Below, in pieces: positions 3,413 to 43,486 of a DNA stretch of 64,000 nucleotides. Source of the stretch: a bacterium (GTDB taxonomy: Bacteria > Krumholzibacteriota > Krumholzibacteriia > LZORAL124-64-63); NCBI GenBank assembly GCA_018814885.1, contig JAHIYU010000177.1:40025-104024 (forward strand). The letters are read 5' to 3'. Under the pieces are notes generated by a model. The model ran no database searches. It worked only from the letters and a program-made list of their open reading frames with translations, and was not told where the DNA came from. Every line of letters starts with the position of its first letter. Position 1 is the first letter of the stretch. The translations under genes and the position numbers were made by a program.

Positions 3413-3489
3413 TGGTACCCCAGACAGGGCTCGAACCTGCGACCCCTGGTTTAGGAAACCAGTGCTCTATCCAGCTGAGCTACTGGGGC
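3413..3489 (-). tRNA. tRNA-Arg (anticodon CCT)
   Basis: Reverse complement is GCCCCAGTAGCTCAGCTGGATAGAGCACTGGTTTCCTAAACCAGGGGTCGCAGGTTCGAGCCCTGTCTGGGGTACCA. Cloverleaf fits, anticodon loop is TTCCTAA, CCA is encoded. Confidence 0.9.
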
Positions 3490-5161: not shown

Positions 5162-5239
<78 letters not shown>

Positions 5240-20050: not shown

Positions 20051-20127
<77 letters not shown>

Positions 20128-25304: not shown

Positions 25305-25380
25305 TGGAGCGGGCTACGGGGCTCGAACCCGCGACCACCAGCTTGGGAAGCTGGTGCTCTACCAACTGAGCTAAGCCCGC
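25305..25380 (-). tRNA. tRNA-Gly (anticodon CCC)
   Basis: Reverse complement is GCGGGCTTAGCTCAGTTGGTAGAGCACCAGCTTCCCAAGCTGGTGGTCGCGGGTTCGAGCCCCGTAGCCCGCTCCA. Anticodon loop is TTCCCAA. Confidence 0.9.
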
Positions 25381-33201: not shown

Positions 33202-34271
33202 GGGGAATCGTCTGCCTTGACCGGCAACGGGTCGAGATCGTAGCTGGCGCGCAGGAGGGCGGCCTGGTCGCGCGCCTGGGACATGCCGGGGTACGAGCCG
33301 GCGCGCAGCTTGTAGAGGGTCAGCCCGCGCTCGTCGGTCACCTCGCTGATCAGCAGCCCGGGAAGGCGCTCGCGCCAGTCATCCAGGAATTTCAACGCGC
33401 GGGCCCTGTCGGCGAAAGCGGCGAACTGGAGGGCGTAGCGTCCGGAAGCCGTTGCCGGCGCCGGAGATTCTTCCCCGAACGGCGTGGAATCGTGCGCGCT
33501 CGCCGACGGAGCTTCGAGACTCCGCTGCAACTCCTCCAGACGCAGCTCCTGCTCGGCGACGAGGGCGGCGGGCAGGGAGCGCGAGAAGCGGTGTTCCAGT
33601 TCGCGGCGAAGGCGGATGGCGTACTGGGGGTCCGTCTCGGCCGCCAGCATCCAGTCCACCAGCAGGATCTCGGCGCGACACGGCGTATCCTCGGTCCGGC
33701 CTGCCATCTCGAGGTAGCGCCGGGCCAGCGCCGGCTCGCCGTCGGCCAGCGCGAGTCGGGCCAGCAGATAACGGGCCCGGTCGTAATCGGGATCGCCCGG
33801 GGGCACGGCGGCCAGGGCGCCCCGGCTGCGCGCGACATCTCCCCGGGCGCGCCAGGCCAGTCCGCCCAGCAGGGTCGTGGAGGCCGCGGTCTCGCCGTTC
33901 CCCAGGGCTATTTCCTCCAGCGAGGCGATCGCCGCCGCGTAATCGCCAGCTCCGAAAGCCTGCCAGGCGGCGTCTGCGAGGAGCAGGTTGCGCGCCGGGG
34001 AGCCGAGATCGGGGGCGTCGAGCAACTCGCGTCGCAGTTCAGCGGCCTCCGCCGGGGATTCCGCGAGACGGAAGCGCCAGTAGAGAGACTGCGGGGTGGC
34101 GGCGTCGTTGGCCGTTAGTGCGGCGGTGAGTTCGCGGGCGTCCGTGAAGCGGCCCACGGCGAACAGGGAGCGTACGTCGTGCCAGTCGCCGCTGGGCGGA
34201 TCCGTGCCGCTGGCGACGGTTGCCGAGGCAACGGCGACGAGCAGGGCCGACCTCAGCACCGCTCGCCTCAT
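33198..34271 (-). CDS. Periplasmic TPR-like repeat protein with C-terminal SPOR domain
   Basis: Signal peptide MRRAVLRSALLVAVASA. C-terminal SPOR-like YALQFAAFADRARALKFL...YKLRAGSY. ATGA overlap with lapB. Confidence 0.65.
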   Translation of the reverse strand: MRRAVLRSALLVAVASATVASGTDPPSGDWHDVRSLFAVGRFTDARELTAALTANDAATPQSLYWRFRLAESPAEAAELRRELLDAPDLGSPARNLLLADAAWQAFGAGDYAAAIASLEEIALGNGETAASTTLLGGLAWRARGDVARSRGALAAVPPGDPDYDRARYLLARLALADGEPALARRYLEMAGRTEDTPCRAEILLVDWMLAAETDPQYAIRLRRELEHRFSRSLPAALVAEQELRLEELQRSLEAPSASAHDSTPFGEESPAPATASGRYALQFAAFADRARALKFLDDWRERLPGLLISEVTDERGLTLYKLRAGSYPGMSQARDQAALLRASYDLDPLPVKADDSP

Positions 34272-35440
34272 GCCGGCTCCCCGTAGGACGCAGGAGGAGC
34301 GAACGACGCGAAACTGCCGCAGTCGCGGCAATACCAGCGCACGCCCCGGGACTGCGCCGCACAGACGCGGCAGGTCCAGCTCCGGGGGCCCTCGGGGATG
34401 AACAGGGTGGACCAGACGCGGGTGAAGTCGCTGTCGGGCAGATCGTTGACCAGGATGCGCAGATACCCCGCCGCCACGGCCGGGGTCAGGCGCGGATCGC
34501 CTCGCTTGCTCTCGAGCATGCTGACCGCCTGTTCGCGGTCGCCGATCTTCTCCTGCAGCAGGGCCAGGGCCAGCCACAGGGAGGGCGGGGCGTCATCGTC
34601 CTGGCAGGCGGACTCGAGGATCGGGATGGATCTCTCGAAGCGACCTGCCGCCAGAAGGGCTTTCCGCAGGACCGGCAGCAGCAAATCGGCGGCGGCGGGA
34701 GCCAGGAGCAAACCCTCGGTGGCCAGCTCGGCGGCGCGTTCGTGGTTCTGCTCGCCGAGATGCGAATAGGCGCGCACGTAGAGCGCGAGGTGTCCGCGAG
34801 ATCCCGTCTTGTCCACGGTCCTGGCCAGGCGGCGTGCTTCGCCGTGATGCCCCGCCTGAGCGGCGCGCACTGCGCGGTCCAGCTGGAACAGTTCGTACTG
34901 GTCGGCGAATTCGGCGGCCGCTTCCGCCGGGGCGCGCTTGGCGCCTTCCTTGAGGGCGCGCGCTGCACCGTCCTCCTGCCCCTGTCCCAGGAACTGCCGG
35001 AAGCGCGCCCGCCAGAAACGGGGAGCCGAAAGATTGTGACGCAAAAGGGAGTCCAGCAGATCGCCGGCCTCGTCCCACAGCTCCAGGGACAGGAGGTCCT
35101 CGGTGAGCGCCAGGGTCACGGAGATCCTCTTGTGGGGCGGCAGCCCCGGGCGGGCGTTCAACCCGCGGTGCAGGGCGGCGGCCCGGCGCGGATCCCCGGT
35201 CAGGCGCAGCAGGTTGCCGAGCTGCAGGTAGGGATCGACGGCTTGCGGTTCCTGGTCGATGGCTTCCCGCAGAGCCTCGATCGCGCCGGCGGTATCGCCG
35301 GCCAGCCAGAGTTCCAGGCCGTGCGTGTAGGCGTCCTCGGCCACGCCGTGGCCGACGCGCCGGCGTAGGAGCAGGAACAGTGCCGCCGCCGCCAGCAGCA
35401 CGGCCAGGGCGATGAACCACGCGGAAGAGAATGCCGCCAT
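34268..35440 (-). CDS. lapB: Lipopolysaccharide assembly protein B (LapB/YciM): TPR repeats plus C-terminal rubredoxin-like zinc ribbon
   Basis: N-terminal TM helix, TPR repeats and C-terminal CRVCAAQ...WYCRDCG metal-binding motif. Located next to lapA. Confidence 0.8.
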   Translation of the reverse strand: MAAFSSAWFIALAVLLAAAALFLLLRRRVGHGVAEDAYTHGLELWLAGDTAGAIEALREAIDQEPQAVDPYLQLGNLLRLTGDPRRAAALHRGLNARPGLPPHKRISVTLALTEDLLSLELWDEAGDLLDSLLRHNLSAPRFWRARFRQFLGQGQEDGAARALKEGAKRAPAEAAAEFADQYELFQLDRAVRAAQAGHHGEARRLARTVDKTGSRGHLALYVRAYSHLGEQNHERAAELATEGLLLAPAAADLLLPVLRKALLAAGRFERSIPILESACQDDDAPPSLWLALALLQEKIGDREQAVSMLESKRGDPRLTPAVAAGYLRILVNDLPDSDFTRVWSTLFIPEGPRSWTCRVCAAQSRGVRWYCRDCGSFASFAPPASYGEPA

Positions 35441-35458
35441 CTGCTTGTCCTCCGTGGC

Positions 35459-35755
35459 TTAGTCCAGTTCGCGCAACGGCAGCGAACGCAACTCGGCGAT
35501 CTCGTTGTCACGGTCCCTCAGATCGCGCCCCAGGGCGCGGAGTCGGTTGCGCAGCTTGACTTCGCGAATGCCGCCGACGACCAGGCTGACGAATATGCCG
35601 GCGAGGAACCCGCCCAGCATCACGTAGTAGAGGGGGATGGCCAGGAACTTCCACCACAACAGGTCCAGGTCAACGGATTGATCGCTGTTCTGGGTGAAGA
35701 ACATGGCCATGGCGATCAAGACGAGCAGATAGAAGATTCCCTTGATGACCCACAC
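35459..35755 (-). CDS. lapA: Lipopolysaccharide assembly protein A (LapA/YciS, DUF1049)
   Basis: 98 aa with two TM helices and a C-terminal charged coiled segment. Immediately upstream of lapB. Confidence 0.7.
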   Translation of the reverse strand: MWVIKGIFYLLVLIAMAMFFTQNSDQSVDLDLLWWKFLAIPLYYVMLGGFLAGIFVSLVVGGIREVKLRNRLRALGRDLRDRDNEIAELRSLPLRELD

Positions 35756-35785
35756 GATTACACCTCGCGGCTGGTTCGAGTCGAT

Positions 35786-37120
35786 TCAAGCCAATTCGGC
35801 GAAAAAGGTCGTCGCCTCGCAACCGGTGATGCGGATGTCGAGCACGTCGCCGACGGCGGCGTTGCAGTCCTTCAACAGTACCTTGCGGTTGTTCGGCGTT
35901 CGTGCCTTCAGCGCCCCCTCCGGCCGGCGGGCTCTCCCCTCCACGGCTGCTCTTCTGCAGTGCCCGATCTCCTGCGCGGCGAGTTCCTGCCAGATCTCGT
36001 CCTGGAGACGCATCACCTCGGCCAGGCGTTCCTTCTTGACCGCGATGTCGACATCGTCATCCAGCCTGGCCGCGGGGGTCCCCGGCCGCGCCGAGTACTT
36101 GAAGTTGAAGGTCTGATCGTAGCGGACCTCCCTCACCAACTCAAGCGTCAGTCGGAAATCGTCGTCGGTTTCCCCCGGGAAGCCCACGATGAAATCGCCC
36201 GAAAAGGTCGCGTCCCGGACCAGACGTCGCGCCGTCTCGATCAGGGAGAGGTACTGGTCGCGGGTGTAGAAGCGCTTCATGCGCCGCAGGATGCGGTCGC
36301 TGCCGCTCTGCGCCGGCAGGTGCAGCCAGGGGCAGACCTTGTCCAGCGAGCCGATCGTGCCGATCAACCGCTCGTCCATGTCGCAGGGGTGCCCCGTCAG
36401 GAATCGGATGCGCGCCAGGCCGTCGATCCCGGCCACCTGGCGCAGCAGGCCGGCGAAATCCAGACCGGGCGCCCGATAGGCGGTGACGTTCTGGCCGAGC
36501 AGGGTGACCTCGTCCCCTCCCGCCGCGACGATGCCGCGGATCTCGTCCAGGATGGCGGATGGAGCCTTCTCGCGCTGGGGACCGCGCGTGGCCGGGACGA
36601 TGCAGTAGGTGCAGCGGTAGTCGCAGCCCTTGTGGATGGTCACCAGGTGAGAGTTGTTGGCGGGATAGGCCGCCGGCGGAGCCACGTAGTGCATTTCCGC
36701 GAGATGGCCCGTGGCCAGCGGCGGGGTGCGGGCGGCGCCCGACAGGAGCCGCGCCAGCATCCGGGGCAGCTGGGCGTACTGGTCGACGCCCGCCACGAGA
36801 TCCGCGTGCCCCTCTCCCGTGGCCAGCGCGCCGGAGAGACGCTCGGCCATGCAACCGCAGACGCCGATGATGTCGGCCCGGATCTGCCCACGGCGCCGCA
36901 GGCTGCGCAGCTCGCCGATGCGGCTGAAGACCTTGTGCTCGGCCAGTTCCCGGACCGAGCAGGTATTGAGAAGGATGATGTCGGCCGCGGCCGGGTCGCT
37001 GGCCAAGGCATAGCCGCTGCGCGTCAGGATGCCGCCGATGGCGGACGAGTCGTAGGTGTTCATCTGACACCCGTAGGTCTCGATGTAGACCCTGCGGCTC
37101 GCGGCTTCCGAAGAGGACAT
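35786..37120 (-). CDS. miaB: tRNA-i6A37 methylthiotransferase MiaB
   Basis: MTTase N-terminal Cys triad (YGCQMN, NTCSVRE, GCMAE), radical SAM CDYRCTYC and TRAM domain. Confidence 0.9.
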   Translation of the reverse strand: MSSSEAASRRVYIETYGCQMNTYDSSAIGGILTRSGYALASDPAAADIILLNTCSVRELAEHKVFSRIGELRSLRRRGQIRADIIGVCGCMAERLSGALATGEGHADLVAGVDQYAQLPRMLARLLSGAARTPPLATGHLAEMHYVAPPAAYPANNSHLVTIHKGCDYRCTYCIVPATRGPQREKAPSAILDEIRGIVAAGGDEVTLLGQNVTAYRAPGLDFAGLLRQVAGIDGLARIRFLTGHPCDMDERLIGTIGSLDKVCPWLHLPAQSGSDRILRRMKRFYTRDQYLSLIETARRLVRDATFSGDFIVGFPGETDDDFRLTLELVREVRYDQTFNFKYSARPGTPAARLDDDVDIAVKKERLAEVMRLQDEIWQELAAQEIGHCRRAAVEGRARRPEGALKARTPNNRKVLLKDCNAAVGDVLDIRITGCEATTFFAELA

Positions 37121-37135
37121 GTCTGCTCCGTGTAC

Positions 37136-38473
37136 TCAGTCGCCGGGCGCCGGCGCCACCTCGTCGGCGTACAGGGTGTCGTCGCGGAAGCCGGCCGGTT
37201 TCAGGACGACCATGGCGCCTGGCTCCCAGGTGTCGGGAACCGACACGGCAGCGTAGTTGCCGGTGGTGGCCTGACGCCGATCCGGCGCCGGTCGGTCGGT
37301 CTCCACCGTGGCTTCGTGCCAGTGGCCGATCAATCGCGTCTCGAACGCGCGGCGCTTGCGGCGGCTCAAGCCCCTCAGGACACGCGAGCGCTCGGTGACG
37401 GTCTCCGTGTGGACGGGCCGCATCTCGGCCGCCGGCGTGCCCGGACGCGGCGAAAAGCGGAACACGTGCAGATAAGATAGGGCCGACCGTTCGATAAAGC
37501 TGCGCGTGGCGGCGAATTCGTCGTCCGTTTCGCCCGGGAAGCCCACGATCACGTCCGCGCCGATGCCGAAATGGGGCGAAAGCCCCGCGGCCGCCTCGAT
37601 CGCCCGGCCGGCGCTGGCCACGTCGTACGGCCGACGCATCCGGCGCAGAACCGTGTCTGAGCCACTCTGGAGCGAGATATGAAGATACGGTCTCAGGTTC
37701 GTGCATGTCTCGAAGAGTTCCAGCAGGGGCGGGCGAATCTCCGTCGGGTGGATGCTGCTCAGGCGGAAACGCATGGACGGAAAGCGCTGCAGAACCTGCG
37801 CGAGCATCGTCACGAGCGCCTTGCCCAGTTCCAGATCCTGGCCGTAGCCGCCGAGATGCACGCCCGCCAGGACGATTTCGCCGAAGCCGCTGCCGCGCAG
37901 CACCTCGATCTGGCGGCAGATTTCGGCGACGGGCCGGGACCGGTTCGGCCCCCGGGCCCGCTGGATCAGGCAATAGCTGCAGTTCAGATCGCAGCCGTCC
38001 TGGACCTTGACGAAGGCGCGGGTGCGGCCGTCGAAGTCGGTGATGTCGTGGGACCGGAAGACGGCGTGAGGCTGGAAGTCCGCCACCTCGATCAGGCGCG
38101 CGTCGGCCGCGAGCAGACGCGGCAGCCATTCGGCGATGTCCTCGCGTTCGTCGAGCCCGAATACGCCGTCGAGCTCGGGCATGGCGGCCAGGGCGGCGTG
38201 CTGGGTCTGGGCGTAGCAGCCGGTCACGACCACCTTGGCGTCGGGCCGGCGCCGTTTCACGGCGCGCGAGAGCTGACGGCACTTCTGATCGGCCTTGAGG
38301 GTGACCGTGCAGCTGTTCAGCACGTAGACATCAGCGTCCGCGTCCCAGGGCACGGTTACGTAGTGCAGCCCGGATGGCAAGCGCGCCTTCATGACCTCCG
38401 TGTCGTACTGGTTCAGACGACAGCCCAGGGTCTGGAAGGCTATGCGCACGGTTCGTGTGTTCTCGTTCGTCAT
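37136..38473 (-). CDS. mtaB: Radical-SAM methylthiotransferase, MtaB-like (second MTTase paralogue)
   Basis: LGCRLNQYDTE...NSCTV...TGCYAQ N-terminal Cys triad plus CDLNCSYC radical SAM motif. Start at internal ATG (MTNENTRT). Confidence 0.75.
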   Translation of the reverse strand: MTNENTRTVRIAFQTLGCRLNQYDTEVMKARLPSGLHYVTVPWDADADVYVLNSCTVTLKADQKCRQLSRAVKRRRPDAKVVVTGCYAQTQHAALAAMPELDGVFGLDEREDIAEWLPRLLAADARLIEVADFQPHAVFRSHDITDFDGRTRAFVKVQDGCDLNCSYCLIQRARGPNRSRPVAEICRQIEVLRGSGFGEIVLAGVHLGGYGQDLELGKALVTMLAQVLQRFPSMRFRLSSIHPTEIRPPLLELFETCTNLRPYLHISLQSGSDTVLRRMRRPYDVASAGRAIEAAAGLSPHFGIGADVIVGFPGETDDEFAATRSFIERSALSYLHVFRFSPRPGTPAAEMRPVHTETVTERSRVLRGLSRRKRRAFETRLIGHWHEATVETDRPAPDRRQATTGNYAAVSVPDTWEPGAMVVLKPAGFRDDTLYADEVAPAPGD

Positions 38474-38555
38474 CACATCCGGTCCGGGACACACGGCGGG
38501 GGTGGAATCGGCTTCCACCCCCGCAGTTCAGGGACGACCCGGTTCCGCGAGGGAA

Positions 38556-40769
38556 CTAGGAATCCTGTTTCTCGTCCTCGGTGGTCGCGTTTTCCTCTGC
38601 CGCCACCTCGACGGGCCGATCGGTCGGCGTCTCCTCGGCCGCTACCGCCTCGATCGACATCTCCTCGGCCGGCGCGGCCGCGGTCGATGCTTCCTCGGTC
38701 TCCGTCTCCTCGGTCGGAGCGGTCTCCGTCTCCTCGGTCGGAGCGACCGCGGCCGATGCTTCCTCGGTCTCCGTCTCCTCGGTCGCTTGCGCCTCGAGTG
38801 CGAGGGCCGCCACCTCGGGCACGTCGTCCACGGACAGGTAGTCGTCGTCGATAGACGCGGGGTAATCGTCGTCACCATGCTCGGCGTTGGCGCGGGCTGC
38901 GGCGTTGTCTTCCTTCTCGGCCGCGCGTTCGGCCGCCACGACGTCCTCGAGCAGCGGATGTTCGGCGACGAACTTGTCCAGCTCCTCGCGCGGCTGGTCC
39001 TTGAAGTACTCGGCCACCGACAGGACGATACGGCGGTTCTCCGCGTCCATCTTGATCACGTGCAAGGGCAGGGCCTCCCCCTCCTTGAAGTGATACTGCG
39101 GCTTCTGGATCTTGGGGATCACCAGGTGGCCGACGGGCACGAAGCCTTCCAGCTCGTTGGAGATCTCCACGACCATGCCATGGTCCAGCATGCGGATGAC
39201 CTTGCCCTCGACCTGGCGCCCCACGGGGTAGTCCTCGGCGAGCGTCGGCCAGGGGTTCTCCTGGAGCTGCTTGATGCCGAGGCTGATGCGCCGCTTGTCG
39301 GCGTCGATGTCCAGGATCTGGACGTGTACCGAATCGCCCTTGCGTACGATCTCCTTGGGATGGCGTACGCGCTTGGTCCACGACATGTCCGAGATGTGCA
39401 CCAGGCCGTCGATGCCCTCCTCCACCTCGACGAAGGCGCCGAAGTCCGTGAGGTTGCGCACGCGGCCCTCGATGATGGTGCCGACGGGGAAGCGGTCGCT
39501 CAGGGACAGCCAGGGATCCGACTCGGTCTGCTTGAGTCCGAGCGAGATCTTCTCGTTGTCCTTGTCTATCTTCAGGACCATGACCTCGACGACGTCGCCG
39601 ATGGACAGGATCTTGCTCGGATGCTTGATATGGCGCGTCCAGGACATCTCGCTGATGTGGATGAGCCCCTCGATGCCCTCTTCCAGCTCCACGAAGGCGC
39701 CGTAATTGGTGATCGAGACGACCTTGCCCTGCACGACGGACTTCTCCGGATACTTCGCCTCGACGTTCTCCCAGGGGTAGGACTGGAGCTGTTTCAGACC
39801 CAGGGAGATCCGTTCGCGTTCGCGGTCGAAGTCAAGGATCTTGACCTCGATCTCGTCGCCGATGTTGACGACCTCGCTCGGATGCTTCACGCGGCCCCAG
39901 GAAAGGTCCGTGATGTGCAGCAGCCCGTCGATGCCGCCCAGGTCCACGAAGGCGCCGAAGTCGGTGATGTTCTTCACCACGCCGGTGCGCACCTGGTCCT
40001 TGTCGAGATCCCGCATCAGCGTCTTCTTCTTCTCCTCGCGCTCGCGCTCGAGCACGATGCGGCGGCTGACCACCACGTTGCGGCGGCGCTTGTTCTTCTT
40101 GATGATCTGGCACTCGATCTCCTGGCCGATCATCTGGTCCAGATCGGGGACCTGGCGCAGCGCGACCTGCGAGCCGGGCAGGAAAGTGTCGACTTCCCAG
40201 AGCTTTACGACCAGGCCGCCCTTGATGCGGCGGTCGACGATGCCCTTGACCACGTCGCCGGCCTCGTGGGCTATCTTGATCTTGTCCCAGACCTTCAGGA
40301 AGTCGGCGCGTTCCTTGGACAGGACCACCAGACCGTCCTGGTCCTCCAGATGCTCCAGGAAGACGTCGAACTCGTCGCCCTCGTTGATCTCCGTCGCGCC
40401 GAATTCGTCGAGAGCGATGATGCCCTCGCTCTTGAAGCCGATGTTGAGCAGGACCTCGTTCTCGCGGACCTCCACCACGATACCCTTGAGGATCTGCCCC
40501 TCCTGGATCTCGTTGAGAGTCTCCTCGTACTGGTTCAGCAGCGCCAGCATGGCGTCGTCGTCCAGCATCTCGTCCTCGGCGTAGTCGCGGTTGACGATCG
40601 CGGTCTCGTCGAAGGTGGTGGTCAGCTTGGGCGCGACAGGACCGGTCGCTTCATAACCGTCGTTGTCGTAGGTATCCCGCGCAGACTTGGCGTGATGCAG
40701 TCGGTTCTCGGGGACTGAAGGAGTCCGCTCCAGCGGAGCTTCATCCCCCGTGTTGGGGTTGGGATTCAT
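38556..40769 (-). CDS. rpsA: 30S ribosomal protein S1 with N-terminal extension and acidic Glu/Thr-rich C-terminal tail
   Basis: Six S1 repeats (e.g. GQILKGIVVEV, GDVVKGIVDRRIKGGLVV, VRTGVVKNITDFGAFVDL). 737 aa, against a typical ~560. Confidence 0.9.
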   Translation of the reverse strand: MNPNPNTGDEAPLERTPSVPENRLHHAKSARDTYDNDGYEATGPVAPKLTTTFDETAIVNRDYAEDEMLDDDAMLALLNQYEETLNEIQEGQILKGIVVEVRENEVLLNIGFKSEGIIALDEFGATEINEGDEFDVFLEHLEDQDGLVVLSKERADFLKVWDKIKIAHEAGDVVKGIVDRRIKGGLVVKLWEVDTFLPGSQVALRQVPDLDQMIGQEIECQIIKKNKRRRNVVVSRRIVLEREREEKKKTLMRDLDKDQVRTGVVKNITDFGAFVDLGGIDGLLHITDLSWGRVKHPSEVVNIGDEIEVKILDFDRERERISLGLKQLQSYPWENVEAKYPEKSVVQGKVVSITNYGAFVELEEGIEGLIHISEMSWTRHIKHPSKILSIGDVVEVMVLKIDKDNEKISLGLKQTESDPWLSLSDRFPVGTIIEGRVRNLTDFGAFVEVEEGIDGLVHISDMSWTKRVRHPKEIVRKGDSVHVQILDIDADKRRISLGIKQLQENPWPTLAEDYPVGRQVEGKVIRMLDHGMVVEISNELEGFVPVGHLVIPKIQKPQYHFKEGEALPLHVIKMDAENRRIVLSVAEYFKDQPREELDKFVAEHPLLEDVVAAERAAEKEDNAAARANAEHGDDDYPASIDDDYLSVDDVPEVAALALEAQATEETETEEASAAVAPTEETETAPTEETETEEASTAAAPAEEMSIEAVAAEETPTDRPVEVAAEENATTEDEKQDS

Positions 40770-40886: not shown

Positions 40887-42335
40887 TCACGCGCGGGACG
40901 CCGGCGACGACTTGCCGAAAACGCGCAGCTCCTTGCGGCGGACGGTGTCCTGCTGGCGGTTGGCGGCTTCGCGCTCCCAGGCCGAGACGGGGACGCGGGC
41001 GCTGGAGCGCGACAGCATCTCCCGGTAGATGTTTTCGAAGAGACGGGCCACGGCGCGGTTGACGTCCTTCTCTGACATGCGCGTCCGCAGAACCCCCAGG
41101 GCATAGAGCCGCACCGGCGGTGCGATCCAGATCTCGAGGGGCGACCTGGGCGAGCCGCCGGGTTCGGGGGACAGTGTGCCGCGGCAGAAGATAGGCAAGG
41201 CGGGCGCGCCGGTCCGCTGCATGATCATGCCCAGCCCGTTGCGCACCGGCCCCGGCTGACCGAAGACGCGACGCGTGCCCTCGGGGAAGAACAGGATGTT
41301 CGCGCCCTGCGCGAGGAACGAGGCCGCCAGGTCGAAGGCCGAGGCGTCGTAGATGGATCTCTTGATGGGCACGGCATCGATGAAGCGGTACACCAGGCGC
41401 GAGGGCCAGAAGCGGAAGAGCTCCGCCTTGGCGATCGCGCGCAGGGGATAGACGTCTTCCACCGCAGCCCCCAGGAACGGAGGGTCCCAGCTGCTGATGT
41501 GGTTGGGAGCCAGGATGGAACCCTGCACGCCTCTGACGTGCTCGCGGCCGTATACGCGCAGGCCGAAGAATCTGCCCAGCGCGCCGAAGATGGCGTAGGC
41601 CAGGCGGTACTTCCAGTGCACCCGGGACCGTCTCGGCATGACGTCGTCGGGCAGGGGCCGCTTTTCGGCGAGTATGTGCAGAACGGCCTCGGTCGTGACC
41701 TCCAGCTGTTCGTGGAGCAACATGTCGCTGTTGTCGATCAACATGGCGTCCGGTGAAACGGCCAGCGGGCTCTCATCCCGCTGGCTATCGAGGCGGTCGC
41801 GCTCCGCCAATTCGCGCAGCACCTCTTGTCGGTCGATCGAGACGCCCCGGCGATGATGCTGCCGCAGACGACGGTCGGCGCGCGCCTCGAGCGTCGCCTC
41901 CAGGAAGATCTTGGCCGACGCCAGGGGGAAGACGACCGAGCCTATGTCGCGACCCTCCATGACCACGCCCCGGGCGCGCCCCAGCGCCCGCTGCCGTTCG
42001 ACCATGCACCGGCGGACCTCGGCATGAGCGGAGACGGCGGAGACGCGGGATTCCACGGCGGGAGTGCGGATCGCCGTGGAGATGTCGCGCCCGTTCCAGG
42101 TGACCTGGGTATCGCCGCGCGCGGTCTCGAGGCGCAGATCGGCGGCGTCGAGCAGCGCGGCGAGACCTGTCGCGTCGCCGGCGGCGATACCGCGCTCGGC
42201 AGAGGCCCAGGTCAGCGCCCGGTACATGGCGCCGCTGTCGACGTAGAGCAGATCTAGTTTGTCCGCGAGCGCACGCGCGGTCGTGGACTTGCCCGATCCG
42301 GCCGGACCGTCGATGGCGATGACGGTGTCCGGCGG
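40887..42335 (-). CDS. cmk: Apparent in-frame fusion: cytidylate kinase (N-terminal) plus 1-acyl-sn-glycerol-3-phosphate acyltransferase PlsC (C-terminal)
   Basis: Cmk P-loop VIAIDGPAGSGKST and lid region, continuing without a stop into an LPLAT domain (ILAPNHISSWDPPFL ... FFPEGTR). Proposed GTG start at 42335, just downstream of the hisC stop. Confidence 0.7.
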   Translation of the reverse strand, partial: PPDTVIAIDGPAGSGKSTTARALADKLDLLYVDSGAMYRALTWASAERGIAAGDATGLAALLDAADLRLETARGDTQVTWNGRDISTAIRTPAVESRVSAVSAHAEVRRCMVERQRALGRARGVVMEGRDIGSVVFPLASAKIFLEATLEARADRRLRQHHRRGVSIDRQEVLRELAERDRLDSQRDESPLAVSPDAMLIDNSDMLLHEQLEVTTEAVLHILAEKRPLPDDVMPRRSRVHWKYRLAYAIFGALGRFFGLRVYGREHVRGVQGSILAPNHISSWDPPFLGAAVEDVYPLRAIAKAELFRFWPSRLVYRFIDAVPIKRSIYDASAFDLAASFLAQGANILFFPEGTRRVFGQPGPVRNGLGMIMQRTGAPALPIFCRGTLSPEPGGSPRSPLEIWIAPPVRLYALGVLRTRMSEKDVNRAVARLFENIYREMLSRSSARVPVSAWEREAANRQQDTVRRKELRVFGKSSPASRA

Positions 42336-42385
42336 CACCAGCCGCGCCGACGCGCCACGAGGGGGACGTCTGAGTGGTTCGCCGC

Positions 42386-43486
42386 TCAAGCCAGTATCTC
42401 CCTCAGCGCCCCGATGCAGCGCCGGTTCTCCTCGGGCAGCCCCACGCTGATGCGAATGGCTCCGTCGCCCAGCCCGAAGGCGTTCATGGGTCGCACGATC
42501 ACGCCACGGGCCAGGAGCTTTCGCGTGAGCGCGTCGGCGTTGCCGGGACAGCGCACGAGGATGAAGTTGGTCTGCGACGGCGTGATCCCCAGCCCCAGTC
42601 CCGTCAGCTCGCGCGCGAGATCCTCCAGCCATAAGCGGTTGTGGGCGGCGCGCGCCCGGGTCGCCTCCTTCTCCTTCAGGACCGCCAGCGCGGCCGCCTG
42701 CGACAGGGCGTTGACGTTGAAAGGCTCGCGTGTCTTTTGCAGCTCGGTGATGAGATCGCGATGGGCCACCGCATAGCCGACCCGCAGTCCCGCCAGGGAG
42801 TGTATCTTGGAGAACGTGCGGGTGACCACCAGGTTGGGGTGCTCCCCCAGCAGGGACAGCGTCTGGGGGTAGTCCGCGGCGGCGACGTACTCGTAGTAGG
42901 CCTCGTCCACCAGGACGATCACGCGCTCGGGCACGTCGTTCAGGAAGGCGTCGAACTCCGCGGCCGTGTTGTAGGTGCCGGTGGGATTGTTGGGATTGCA
43001 GACGATCGCCAGCTTGGTGGCGTCGTCCATGGCCGCCGCCATCGCGTGCAGGTCGTGGCGATCCCCCGCGTCCAGGGGAACGGCCCGGCCGCATTCGAAA
43101 TGCACGCCGCAGGTCAGCGGATAGACGATGAAGCTGGGATGGCCGAACACCACGTTCTCCCCCGGCGAGACGAGGGCCCGGATGAACATGTCGATGACCT
43201 CGTTCGAGCCGTTGCCAAAGATGAGGTTTCCGGGAGCGACTCCCAGATCGTCGGCCACGGCGTGCGTCAGCTCGTAGCACGCCGCATCGGGGTAGCGGTT
43301 CAGGTCGAGGGCGGCACGGCTCACGGCTTCCAGCACGGACGGCAGCGGTCCTTCCGGATTCTCGTTGCTGGCCAGTTTCACGACGCTGTCCAGCCCCAGT
43401 TCGCGCTGCACTTCGCTGATGGGCTTGCCCGGAGAGTAGGGGCGGGTGGCGACGATCCCCGGCCGGAAGAGTTGCTTGAAGTCCAT
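42386..43486 (-). CDS. hisC: Histidinol-phosphate aminotransferase
   Basis: Class-II aminotransferase with PLP-lysine region (TFSKIHSLAGLRVGYAV). Confidence 0.85.
   Translation of the reverse strand: MDFKQLFRPGIVATRPYSPGKPISEVQRELGLDSVVKLASNENPEGPLPSVLEAVSRAALDLNRYPDAACYELTHAVADDLGVAPGNLIFGNGSNEVIDMFIRALVSPGENVVFGHPSFIVYPLTCGVHFECGRAVPLDAGDRHDLHAMAAAMDDATKLAIVCNPNNPTGTYNTAAEFDAFLNDVPERVIVLVDEAYYEYVAAADYPQTLSLLGEHPNLVVTRTFSKIHSLAGLRVGYAVAHRDLITELQKTREPFNVNALSQAAALAVLKEKEATRARAAHNRLWLEDLARELTGLGLGITPSQTNFILVRCPGNADALTRKLLARGVIVRPMNAFGLGDGAIRISVGLPEENRRCIGALREILA

Follow-up and report, generated by a model that had tools for sequence, protein, structure and literature searches.

Whether a single open reading frame that begins as a cytidylate kinase (Cmk) and ends as a lysophosphatidate acyltransferase (PlsC) represents one gene or two genes merged by error, and what the two activities could gain from being joined, are the questions raised by a minus-strand locus in a 64,000-nucleotide stretch of bacterial DNA (hereafter the window). 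The first-pass annotation of the sequence had proposed a cmk-plsC fusion with both domains intact, and this is borne out: the fusion is genuine, both its domains are intact, and the architecture is common in uncultured bacteria and under-annotated.

Reading frame and gene neighbourhood

The gene and its immediate neighbours are as follows.

42386..43486, minus strand: hisC (histidinol-phosphate transaminase), upstream neighbour; TIGR01141, 343.8 bits against a cutoff of 276.55; its stop codon overlaps the TTG of the fusion
40887..42389, minus strand: cmk-plsC fusion CDS; single frame, stop codon TGA at 40887-40889
38556..40769, minus strand: rpsA (ribosomal protein S1), downstream neighbour; NF004952, 724 bits against a cutoff of 524

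The frame ending at this TGA holds VIAIDGPAGSGKST, LHILAEKRP, NHISSWDPPF and FPEGTR, all the motifs that had been quoted for the locus, in one and the same polypeptide, in which Pfam recognises both Cytidylate_kin (residues 6-216, E 1.2e-63) and PF01553 (residues 259-384, E 3.6e-20). Neither a stop codon nor a frameshift, either of which the first-pass annotation had named as evidence against a fusion, was found between the Cmk and PlsC domains when the frame was read through the junction. The third-position GC content is 0.84-0.94 in nine of the ten 150-nt blocks of the frame, including the block that spans the junction, and 0.76 in the first block, which contains the disputed leader. A chance high-GC open reading frame and a hidden frameshift are ruled out by this evenness of the third-position GC in one frame.

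The translation start is probably TTG 42389, which yields a 500-aa form matching NCBI MBU0743368.1, is preceded by a Shine-Dalgarno-like GAGGGAG motif 8 nt 5' and overlaps the hisC stop codon within the sequence TTGA. From the alternative start, GTG 42338, a protein of 483 aa results, as in the JGI gene call (P0001), and the residue numbers used here for the fusion protein are those of this form. The upper coordinate of the first-pass annotation, 42335, lies one codon inside GTG 42338. The mechanically predicted open reading frame extends as far as 43280, overlapping hisC, because stop codons are few in high-GC DNA; this extension lies outside the gene. Possible internal starts for a separate PlsC, M235 and V240, are in frame, but were rejected as unconserved in the homologues and lacking a clear ribosome-binding site.

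The beginning of rpsA lies 116 bp after the stop codon of the fusion, so the earlier suggestion that cmk had been displaced from its place next to rpsA was mistaken: the fused gene is directly upstream of rpsA, a position common to stand-alone cmk and the fusion, and the order cmk-plsC-rpsA is common in its own right. A tblastn search of the 64-kb window found no second cmk or plsC, an intact copy of which nearby, with the fused one degraded, would have counted against the fusion. Neither a promoter nor a terminator separating the fusion from the adjacent genes came out of a consensus scan, and an Rfam scan of the window returned four tRNAs alone, all away from the fusion.

Conservation of the architecture

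Among the matches listed, PF02224 and PF01553 are both present in 120 of 120 homologues (50-100% identity), most of them 474-520 aa in length with a query coverage of 94-100% and three being truncated fragments; residue conservation was computed over an alignment of 81 homologues. The search for the fusion in related genomes that the first-pass annotation had proposed thus found it in all the listed homologues, and also in an 80%-identical relative, where eight contigs share the gene order scpA-scpB-rluB-hisC-fusion-rpsA. The identical protein is held by NCBI under the name "(d)CMP kinase [bacterium]", with three NCBI MAG records. Protein clustering at 90% identity gives well over 100 clusters with this architecture, and at 50% identity many divergent ones have it, so that the rarity implied earlier does not hold, the exact protein having already been deposited. 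Of the 150 representatives (clusters at 50% identity) nearest to the acyltransferase half, 24 have a Cmk at the N-terminus, and both domains were confirmed in all six of these 24 that were scanned against Pfam. The taxonomic range was read from database source labels, according to which the fusion-carrying MAGs belong to Krumholzibacteria, Gemmatimonadales and unclassified "bacterium". A scan of contigs employed two peptide patterns, both lying in the Cmk half, and its matches are mostly ordinary cmk genes; one genome of the same clade (L001) was the only such genome among the matches listed.

These observations bear directly on the possibility that a sequencing or assembly error, by removing a stop codon or through a compensated frameshift, has merged separate cmk and plsC genes. 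A single error could achieve this, as many genomes have the two genes split by one stop codon or a few bases. Such an error would nevertheless have to be reconciled with an identical protein in independent NCBI, JGI and ENA assemblies, with a single frame kept in every listed homologue down to 50% identity and on the eight contigs of the 80%-identical relative, and with a third-position GC that is uniform through the junction. The artefact reading is rejected because the architecture is conserved and the third-position GC uniform, and its probability is considered negligible. The first-pass view that an annotation artefact was unlikely is further upheld by the gene order common to the relative and by the structure model and fold matches described below.

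The kinase and acyltransferase halves

An AlphaFold2 model of the fusion has a pLDDT of 91.4 and a pTM of 0.90, with confidence dipping at the linker and the extreme C-terminus only. The features of the N-terminal half and the linker are given below.

41661..42323, minus strand: cytidylate kinase domain, residues 6-226 (last helix 208-226); PF02224, TIGR00017 and fold
42282..42308, minus strand: P-loop GPAGSGKST, residues 11-19; conservation across 81 homologues
41616..41660, minus strand: inter-domain linker, residues 227-241 (EKRPLPDDVMPRRSRVH); sequence and length both variable, sole internal low-confidence stretch of the model

The Cmk half scores 215.1 bits against the Pfam PF02224 model (cutoff 26) and clears the curated equivalog cutoff of TIGR00017 (219.7 against 135.55 bits). 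Its P-loop satisfies the consensus GxxGxGK[ST], with G11, P12, G14, G16, K17 and S18 invariant in the 81 homologues and A13, S15 and T19 at least 90% conserved. Alignment of the first 226 residues to E. coli Cmk is gap-free, with the numbering shifted by one and an identity of 35-36%, and brings S35, R40, S100, R109, R130, D131, R180, D184 and R187 into register with E. coli S36, R41, S101, R110, R131, D132, R181, D185 and R188; S35 is Ser or Thr in the 81 homologues and the other eight are invariant. We take the E. coli residues S36, R41, R110, R131, D132, R181, D185 and R188 to be those of CMP binding and the lid. The fold, including the insert of the NMP-binding domain, matches 1KDO and 2CMK in Foldseek with target-normalised TM scores of 0.88-0.91 and an rmsd of 1.9-2.3 Å. 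The fusion and E. coli Cmk (1KDO/2CMK; TIGR00017, PF02224) therefore have the P-loop, the CMP-binding and lid residues and the fold in common, and differ in that a stand-alone Cmk comprises about 225 aa whereas the Cmk of the fusion continues into the acyltransferase. From these features the N-terminal half would be a complete bacterial CMP kinase, predicted to convert CMP or dCMP and ATP into CDP or dCDP and ADP.

A Cmk half without kinase function that senses nucleotides or regulates the acyltransferase, with CMP kinase activity supplied by another enzyme, would fit the fixed domain arrangement hinted at by the pTM, which is compatible with allosteric coupling. It is very improbable, as the P-loop and most of the aligned CMP-binding and lid residues are invariant and the equivalog cutoff is passed, the window contains no other cmk, and the gene occupies the canonical cmk site upstream of rpsA.

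The C-terminal half, which is preferred here as a PlsC, comprises the following features.

41568..41615, minus strand: amphipathic helix, residues 242-257 (WKYRLAYAIFGALGRF); predicted by the model, matches the N-terminal helix of stand-alone cmk-adjacent PlsCs
41187..41564, minus strand: acyltransferase (LPLAT/PlsC) core, residues 259-384; PF01553, and 5KYM by sequence and fold
41484..41501, minus strand: HX4D catalytic motif, H280-I-S-S-W-D285; aligns to NHQSLMD of T. maritima PlsC
41271..41288, minus strand: motif III, FPEGTR, residues 351-356; identical to FPEGTR of 5KYM
40917..41099, minus strand: C-terminal helical region, residues 414-474 (helices 414-420, 423-448 and 453-474); model and conservation

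This half scores 72.6 bits against Pfam PF01553 (cutoff 23), and its best non-kinase PDB match, by sequence (E 2e-5, 9e-6) as well as by fold (E 8e-7), is T. maritima PlsC (5KYM), although the identity is only about 20% and the fold match is moderate (target-normalised TM 0.59). The motifs HX4D, IAKxEL, FPEGTR and PxxP(I/V) are common to the two proteins, IAKAEL (motif II) of the fusion aligning to IAKEEL of 5KYM and GAPALPI (motif IV) to GVPVLPV. In the 81 homologues H280, D285, E306, L307, P352, E353, G354 and R356 are invariant, with conservation of 90% or more at K304 and P382.

The flanks of the core differ between the two proteins. About 60 residues precede the aligned core in T. maritima PlsC, presumably containing its two-helix membrane motif, whereas the fusion has about 30 with one helix (242-257), in which Y244 and R245 reach 90% conservation or more in the 81 homologues; this is presumed to be a membrane-interface helix. 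No transmembrane segment was found in the fusion, the top 19-residue Kyte-Doolittle mean being 1.48 and located in the kinase core. The helical region 414-474 at the C-terminus is conserved within the clade of the fusion and is missing from T. maritima PlsC and from the stand-alone PlsCs of about 200 aa.

Among the acyltransferase family models, AGP_acyltrn is the best (E 5e-17), ahead of Aas (E 9e-11) and OlsA (E 3e-3). The TIGR00530 AGP_acyltrn score is below its cutoff (61.8 against 102.95 bits), and the assignment to PlsC accordingly rests on motifs, fold and synteny. As to synteny, in C. difficile R20291 cmk (CDR20291_1711) lies directly 5' of an essential plsC (CDR20291_1712) (PMC12548448, supplementary file 4); the authors equate CDR20291_1712 with B. 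subtilis plsC, and the second C. difficile 'plsC' is dispensable (PMC12548448). By these sequence and model comparisons the C-terminal half would be a PlsC-type lysophospholipid acyltransferase, most probably a 1-acyl-glycerol-3-phosphate acyltransferase making phosphatidic acid, and acylation of lysophosphatidate at the sn-2 position would follow from synteny, the plsC next to cmk in C. difficile being the essential one. The missed TIGR00530 cutoff, the weaker matches to the Aas-type and OlsA-type models and the additional C-terminal helical region that the short PlsCs do not have would also suit a different LPLAT enzyme, acting in lysophospholipid re-acylation or on aminolipids or other acylated lipids, with phosphatidic acid made by a separate plsC at another locus; C. 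difficile has two 'plsC' genes, so genomes can hold two. Such an enzyme is nonetheless unlikely here, given that AGP_acyltrn is matched well above Aas and OlsA, that a PlsC is the best solved structure by both sequence and fold, and that the position after cmk is that of the essential plsC of C. difficile.

Origin and possible meaning of the fusion

Stand-alone cmk is followed immediately by a plsC of 195-210 aa in 27 of the 80 genome loci examined among the matches listed, these representing several phyla, and rpsA lies downstream in most of those of the 80 loci in which plsC is adjacent or fused. The pair, usually followed by rpsA, was seen among the matches listed in Bacilli, Clostridia, Negativicutes, Elusimicrobia, Verrucomicrobiota and Latescibacterota. 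The order and orientation of the cmk-plsC(-rpsA/ispH) genes of Firmicutes and other phyla, as in C. difficile R20291, are those of the fusion, and the short PlsC of the pair opens with a helix equivalent to the one that follows the linker in the fusion. The difference is that the pair encodes separate proteins of about 220 and 200 aa, whereas in the fusion and in scattered lineages the stop codon is gone. At one locus (L002) a single in-frame stop codon separates cmk from plsC, and its PlsC starts with LRLHYRL, comparable to VHWKYRL in the fusion. A full-text literature search found no paper on a Cmk-PlsC fusion or on the cmk-plsC pair.

In a neighbour-joining tree of the acyltransferase cores fused and unfused sequences are intermixed, the 25 fused sequences falling into 21 separate all-fused groups, a count that is inflated by truncated fragments in what is a rough tree; the pattern suggests that fusion or fission may have happened repeatedly. 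The length of the linker also varies between the fusion lineages. It is likely that the gene is a maintained bifunctional one, born by loss of the stop codon between the co-oriented neighbours cmk and a short plsC of the housekeeping type.

What such a gene might contribute can be outlined from its parts. With one amphipathic helix (242-257) and no transmembrane segment, the protein is proposed to sit on the cytoplasmic face of the membrane, where the kinase would be tethered together with the acyltransferase. The benefit is likely to be that two enzymes serving the CdsA step are co-expressed at equal dose and kept in one place: CMP freed by the synthases that consume CDP-diacylglycerol would be re-phosphorylated toward CTP, and phosphatidic acid would be made alongside. 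The Cmk and PlsC reactions are non-consecutive pathway steps, and direct substrate channelling is therefore not expected. CDP is no substrate of PlsC and phosphatidic acid none of Cmk, and since neither product is the substrate of the partner, the kinetic advantage of the fusion is possibly nil. A link between the kinase and acyltransferase activities by way of CMP/CTP and CDP-diacylglycerol, in line with the biochemical rationale offered by the first-pass annotation, is plausible but indirect.

Alternatively, the fusion may be a selectively neutral by-product of tightly packed, co-transcribed genes, with no coupling past co-expression, an explanation that has a substantial chance of being correct and that the interspersion of fused and unfused sequences in the rough tree, the unlike linker lengths and the non-consecutive reactions would favour. 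The retention of the cmk-plsC pair across distant phyla and of the fusion within the clade down to 50% identity speaks against neutrality, as does the confident model, which suggests a defined arrangement between the domains; these points are not decisive. At the other extreme, a membrane unit can tentatively be envisaged in which the tethered Cmk would locally re-phosphorylate CMP released by PgsA or Pss, or would serve as a CMP/CTP sensor and match, via a fixed contact with the acyltransferase, the synthesis of phosphatidic acid to the CTP available for CdsA; the cmk-plsC pair would then mark an unrecognised coupling of pyrimidine salvage and phospholipid synthesis, possibly within a CdsA-containing complex. 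This reading is speculative and rather doubtful.

The curated PanC/Cmk (NF010004), AroA/Cmk (NF008816) and Cmk/Der (NF007071) models likewise describe Cmk combined in one polypeptide with the protein of an adjacent gene, but the partner differs: these match the Cmk part of the fusion only, with scores far under their cutoffs (224 against 524, 170 against 943 and 160 against 953 bits, respectively). No curated bifunctional Cmk/PlsC model was among the profile matches, and the NCBI name mentions the kinase alone. The fusion reveals no new kind of enzyme or system, and its main value is a correction of annotation. Together with the broad occurrence of the cmk-plsC(-rpsA) pair, it provides a Rosetta-stone hint at co-regulation of phospholipid synthesis with CMP recycling. 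Hundreds of proteins named only "(d)CMP kinase" also carry the probable PlsC of the organism, and as a consequence of this naming, reconstructions of these uncultured lineages could wrongly report the phosphatidic acid step as missing.

Reading frame and domain assignment

The motifs cited in the first-pass annotation for an apparent cmk-plsC fusion all lie in one minus-strand frame ending at 40887, as judged from the ORF listing and the DNA, with a TGA stop codon at 40887-40889. Its claim that both domains are intact is borne out by the single frame, by both Pfam domains and by invariant catalytic positions. A single polypeptide thus carries two complete, conserved catalytic domains (residues numbered in the 483-aa form):

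Residues 6-216, minus strand: Cytidylate_kin (PF02224), Pfam E-value 1.2e-63
Residues 259-384, minus strand: Acyltransferase (PF01553), Pfam E-value 3.6e-20

A stop codon between the domains was looked for and is absent. Third-position GC is 0.84-0.94 in nine of the ten 150-nt blocks of the frame, including the junction block, and 0.76 in the first block, which holds the disputed leader; such uniformity in a single frame indicates no hidden frameshift. No other copy of either half, and hence no second intact cmk or plsC, was found in the 64-kb window by tblastn with each half as query.

Two start codons have been called. The JGI call is the 483-aa form (P0001, identical to the window), with GTG at 42338 directly preceding PPDTVIAIDGPAGSGKST, and the NCBI call is the 500-aa form (P0121; MBU0743368.1, MBU1073136.1 and MBU1674363.1, named "(d)CMP kinase [bacterium]"), identical to the window translation from TTG 42389. 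The TTG is preceded by GAGGGAG at a distance of 8 nt, no comparable motif precedes the GTG, and the homologues carry N-terminal leaders of 10-40 residues; the sequence favours TTG 42389 over GTG 42338 as the putative start. The choice does not affect the fusion. The TTG shares bases with the upstream gene's TGA in the sequence TTGA (42386-42389, the hisC stop with the favoured start), which suggests translational coupling of the two genes. The part of a 797-codon mechanical ORF upstream of 42389, overlapping hisC in another frame, was rejected as a high-GC artefact.

The protein belongs to the Cmk family by every test applied. The kinase half exceeds the curated cmk equivalog cutoff (219.7 vs 135.55 bits), and its alignment to E. 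coli Cmk is gapless with a one-residue offset, S35, R40, S100, R109 and R130 corresponding to S36, R41, S101, R110 and R131, and D131, R180, D184 and R187 to D132, R181, D185 and R188; these E. coli residues function in CMP binding and the lid. The curated models for the bifunctional PanC/Cmk, AroA/Cmk and Cmk/Der proteins match the Cmk part only, and the fusion is none of these, their partner domains being unmatched; no bifunctional Cmk/PlsC model appeared among the curated models compared.

The acyltransferase half is an LPLAT superfamily member, judged by both the cutoff and its motifs. Its best model is AGP_acyltrn (TIGR00530, E-value 5e-17), whose own cutoff is not reached (61.8 vs 102.95 bits), and the Aas-type and OlsA-type models are weaker. 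The only solved relative by sequence is Thermotoga maritima PlsC (PDB 5KYM), with corresponding motifs (fusion/5KYM) NHISSWD/NHQSLMD, IAKAEL/IAKEEL, FPEGTR/FPEGTR and GAPALPI/GVPVLPV.

Conservation and predicted structure

Among 5.8 billion clustered proteins, 1867 matched at E <= 1e-10. Both PF02224 and PF01553 are present in all of the best 120, down to 50% identity; these are mostly of 474-520 aa with query coverage of 94-100%, and three are truncated fragments. A relative at 80% identity (P0002) was found on eight contigs. Across 81 aligned homologues the invariant positions comprise G11, P12, G14, G16, K17 and S18 of the P-loop; Y39, R40, R109, G129, R130, D131, R180, D184 and R187 elsewhere in the kinase; and H280, D285, E306, L307, P324, I325, R327, P352, E353, G354 and R356 in the acyltransferase. 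The architecture kept across the listed homologues, the synteny of P0002 and the invariant residues rule out an artefact, in line with the first-pass annotation, which considered a simple annotation artefact unlikely. Near the junction, positions 41705-41745 within the C-terminal portion of the Cmk domain form an imperfect tandem repeat of a 21-nt unit (1.9 copies, 85% match); since the encoded sequence is ordinary conserved Cmk, the repeat is probably due to chance.

The depositors' name covers the first domain only; named homologues are likewise labelled "(d)CMP kinase", from metagenome-assembled genomes (MAGs) assigned to bacterium, Candidatus Krumholzibacteria/Krumholzibacteriota and Gemmatimonadales. 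The fusion is already abundant in databases and under-annotated, and the main value of the finding lies in annotation correction and in the possible metabolic link described below. Full-text literature searches found no paper on a Cmk-PlsC fusion or a cmk-plsC pair.

The AlphaFold2 model, for which the 81-sequence alignment served as input, has high confidence (pLDDT 91.4, pTM 0.90), dipping only at the linker block 231-240 (mean 68) and the extreme C-terminus; a pTM this high may reflect a fixed arrangement of the two domains. The first Foldseek match in the PDB is E. coli Cmk (target-normalised TM 0.88-0.91); outside the kinases 5KYM ranks best (E-value 8e-7, TM 0.59), ahead of LpxM and PatA, and no solved chain in the PDB spans both halves. 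Between the halves lie a variable linker of 15 residues and a moderately hydrophobic, amphipathic helix (242-257, WKYRLAYAIFGALGRF). This is the only helix ahead of the acyltransferase core, where 5KYM has about 60 residues. Prediction gave no transmembrane segment.

Neighbouring genes and probable roles

The displacement of cmk from rpsA proposed earlier does not hold, the fused gene lying 116 bp upstream of rpsA. Upstream of the fusion are hisC, an rluB-like gene, scpB and scpA, and downstream are:

38556-40769, minus strand: rpsA
37136-38518, minus strand: MtaB radical-SAM methylthiotransferase
35786-37120, minus strand: MiaB radical-SAM methylthiotransferase, in tandem with MtaB
35459-35755, minus strand: LapA-domain protein
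34268-35440, minus strand: LapB-like TPR protein

In the 80%-identical relative P0002, locus L081 has the fusion in the same order (scpA, scpB, pseudouridine synthase, hisC, fusion, rpsA, two radical-SAM methylthiotransferases), which also keeps the MtaB-MiaB-LapA-LapB order of 34268-38518. RpsA has 737 aa (771 aa in the 80%-identical relative), of which S1 models span only approximately residues 64-615. It is extended by about 65 aa at the N-terminus and ends in an acidic tail of about 120 aa, rich in Thr, Glu and Ala, that includes a perfect 24-nt tandem repeat (38696-38745). Rfam found nothing in the whole window beyond four tRNA genes:

3413-3489, minus strand: tRNA-Arg (CCT)
5162-5239, minus strand: tRNA-Pro (CGG)
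20051-20127, minus strand: tRNA-Pro (GGG)
25305-25380, minus strand: tRNA-Gly (CCC)

Judged from its sequence, the protein would work as Cmk plus PlsC, the kinase half converting CMP to CDP and the acyltransferase half synthesising phosphatidic acid, probably at the inner membrane face. CdsA forms CDP-diacylglycerol from CTP and phosphatidic acid, so that both halves would feed one step, and CMP is set free from CDP-diacylglycerol by PgsA and Pss; the fusion raises the possibility that CMP recycling and phospholipid synthesis are linked. The two reactions are non-consecutive because Ndk and CdsA intervene, and co-expression and co-localisation are therefore more likely than channelling.

In Clostridioides difficile R20291, cmk (CDR20291_1711) is immediately followed by plsC (CDR20291_1712, 597 bp), with ispH next (PMC12548448, supplementary file 4). 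CDR20291_1712 is essential in Tn-seq and CRISPRi and is equated by the authors with Bacillus subtilis plsC (BSU09540), while a second "plsC", CDR20291_1620, is non-essential (PMC12548448). The window acyltransferase domain shares 25-30% identity with Clostridia proteins, and by synteny with C. difficile alone it is probably the housekeeping PlsC.

Split and fused cmk-plsC loci

A scan of genome contigs matched mostly ordinary cmk genes, and 80 loci were compared. Fusions occur in three: L001 (the clade of the window protein), L007 (Ruminococcus sp.) and L016 (an uncultured Clostridia MAG). A separate plsC of 195-210 aa directly follows cmk in 27 of the 80, overlapping it or separated from it by no more than a few codons, in Bacilli (Thalassobacillus, Sporosarcina, Paenibacillus, Cohnella and others), Clostridia (Oscillospiraceae, Tepidibacter, Intestinibacter, Anaerosalibacter), Negativicutes, Elusimicrobia, Verrucomicrobiota and Latescibacterota; the Bacteroidota, Ignavibacteriota and Acidobacteriota loci of the set have cmk without a plsC partner. 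Most loci with plsC adjacent or fused have rpsA downstream. The fusion is real and well conserved, yet ordinary: in Rosetta-stone fashion it joins two genes that commonly occur as a pair.

Stand-alone PlsCs start about 40 residues before the HX4D motif, with a single hydrophobic helix. At locus L002 the cmk stop is followed immediately in frame by LRLHYRL..., the counterpart of VHWKYRL (residues 240-246) in the window, so that loss of one stop codon would suffice for fusion. L002 (6730-6735) and about a dozen Firmicutes loci have cmk and plsC in the same frame with one stop between, an arrangement that may represent a pre-fusion state and may be over-represented here, as such pairs could rank higher in a tblastn-based selection.

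An exhaustive HMMER search with the acyltransferase half against 1.84 billion 50%-identity representatives gave 8415 matches at E <= 1e-3, only nine of them at E <= 1e-30. Among the best 150 of the 8415, 24 carry an N-terminal Cmk, 17 of these being full length (413-521 aa, with a Cmk part 34-60% identical to the query), and the remainder of the 150 are mostly stand-alone proteins of 190-240 aa. All six Cmk-bearing representatives scanned against Pfam have both domains. Fused and unfused acyltransferase cores are interspersed in a rough, weak neighbour-joining tree, in which fragments inflate the count, and this scatter suggests repeated fusion or fission. Relatives of the acyltransferase half also include P0219 (485 aa), in which a glycosyltransferase family 2 domain is fused to an acyltransferase, and two proteins with two acyltransferase domains each (P0148, P0171).
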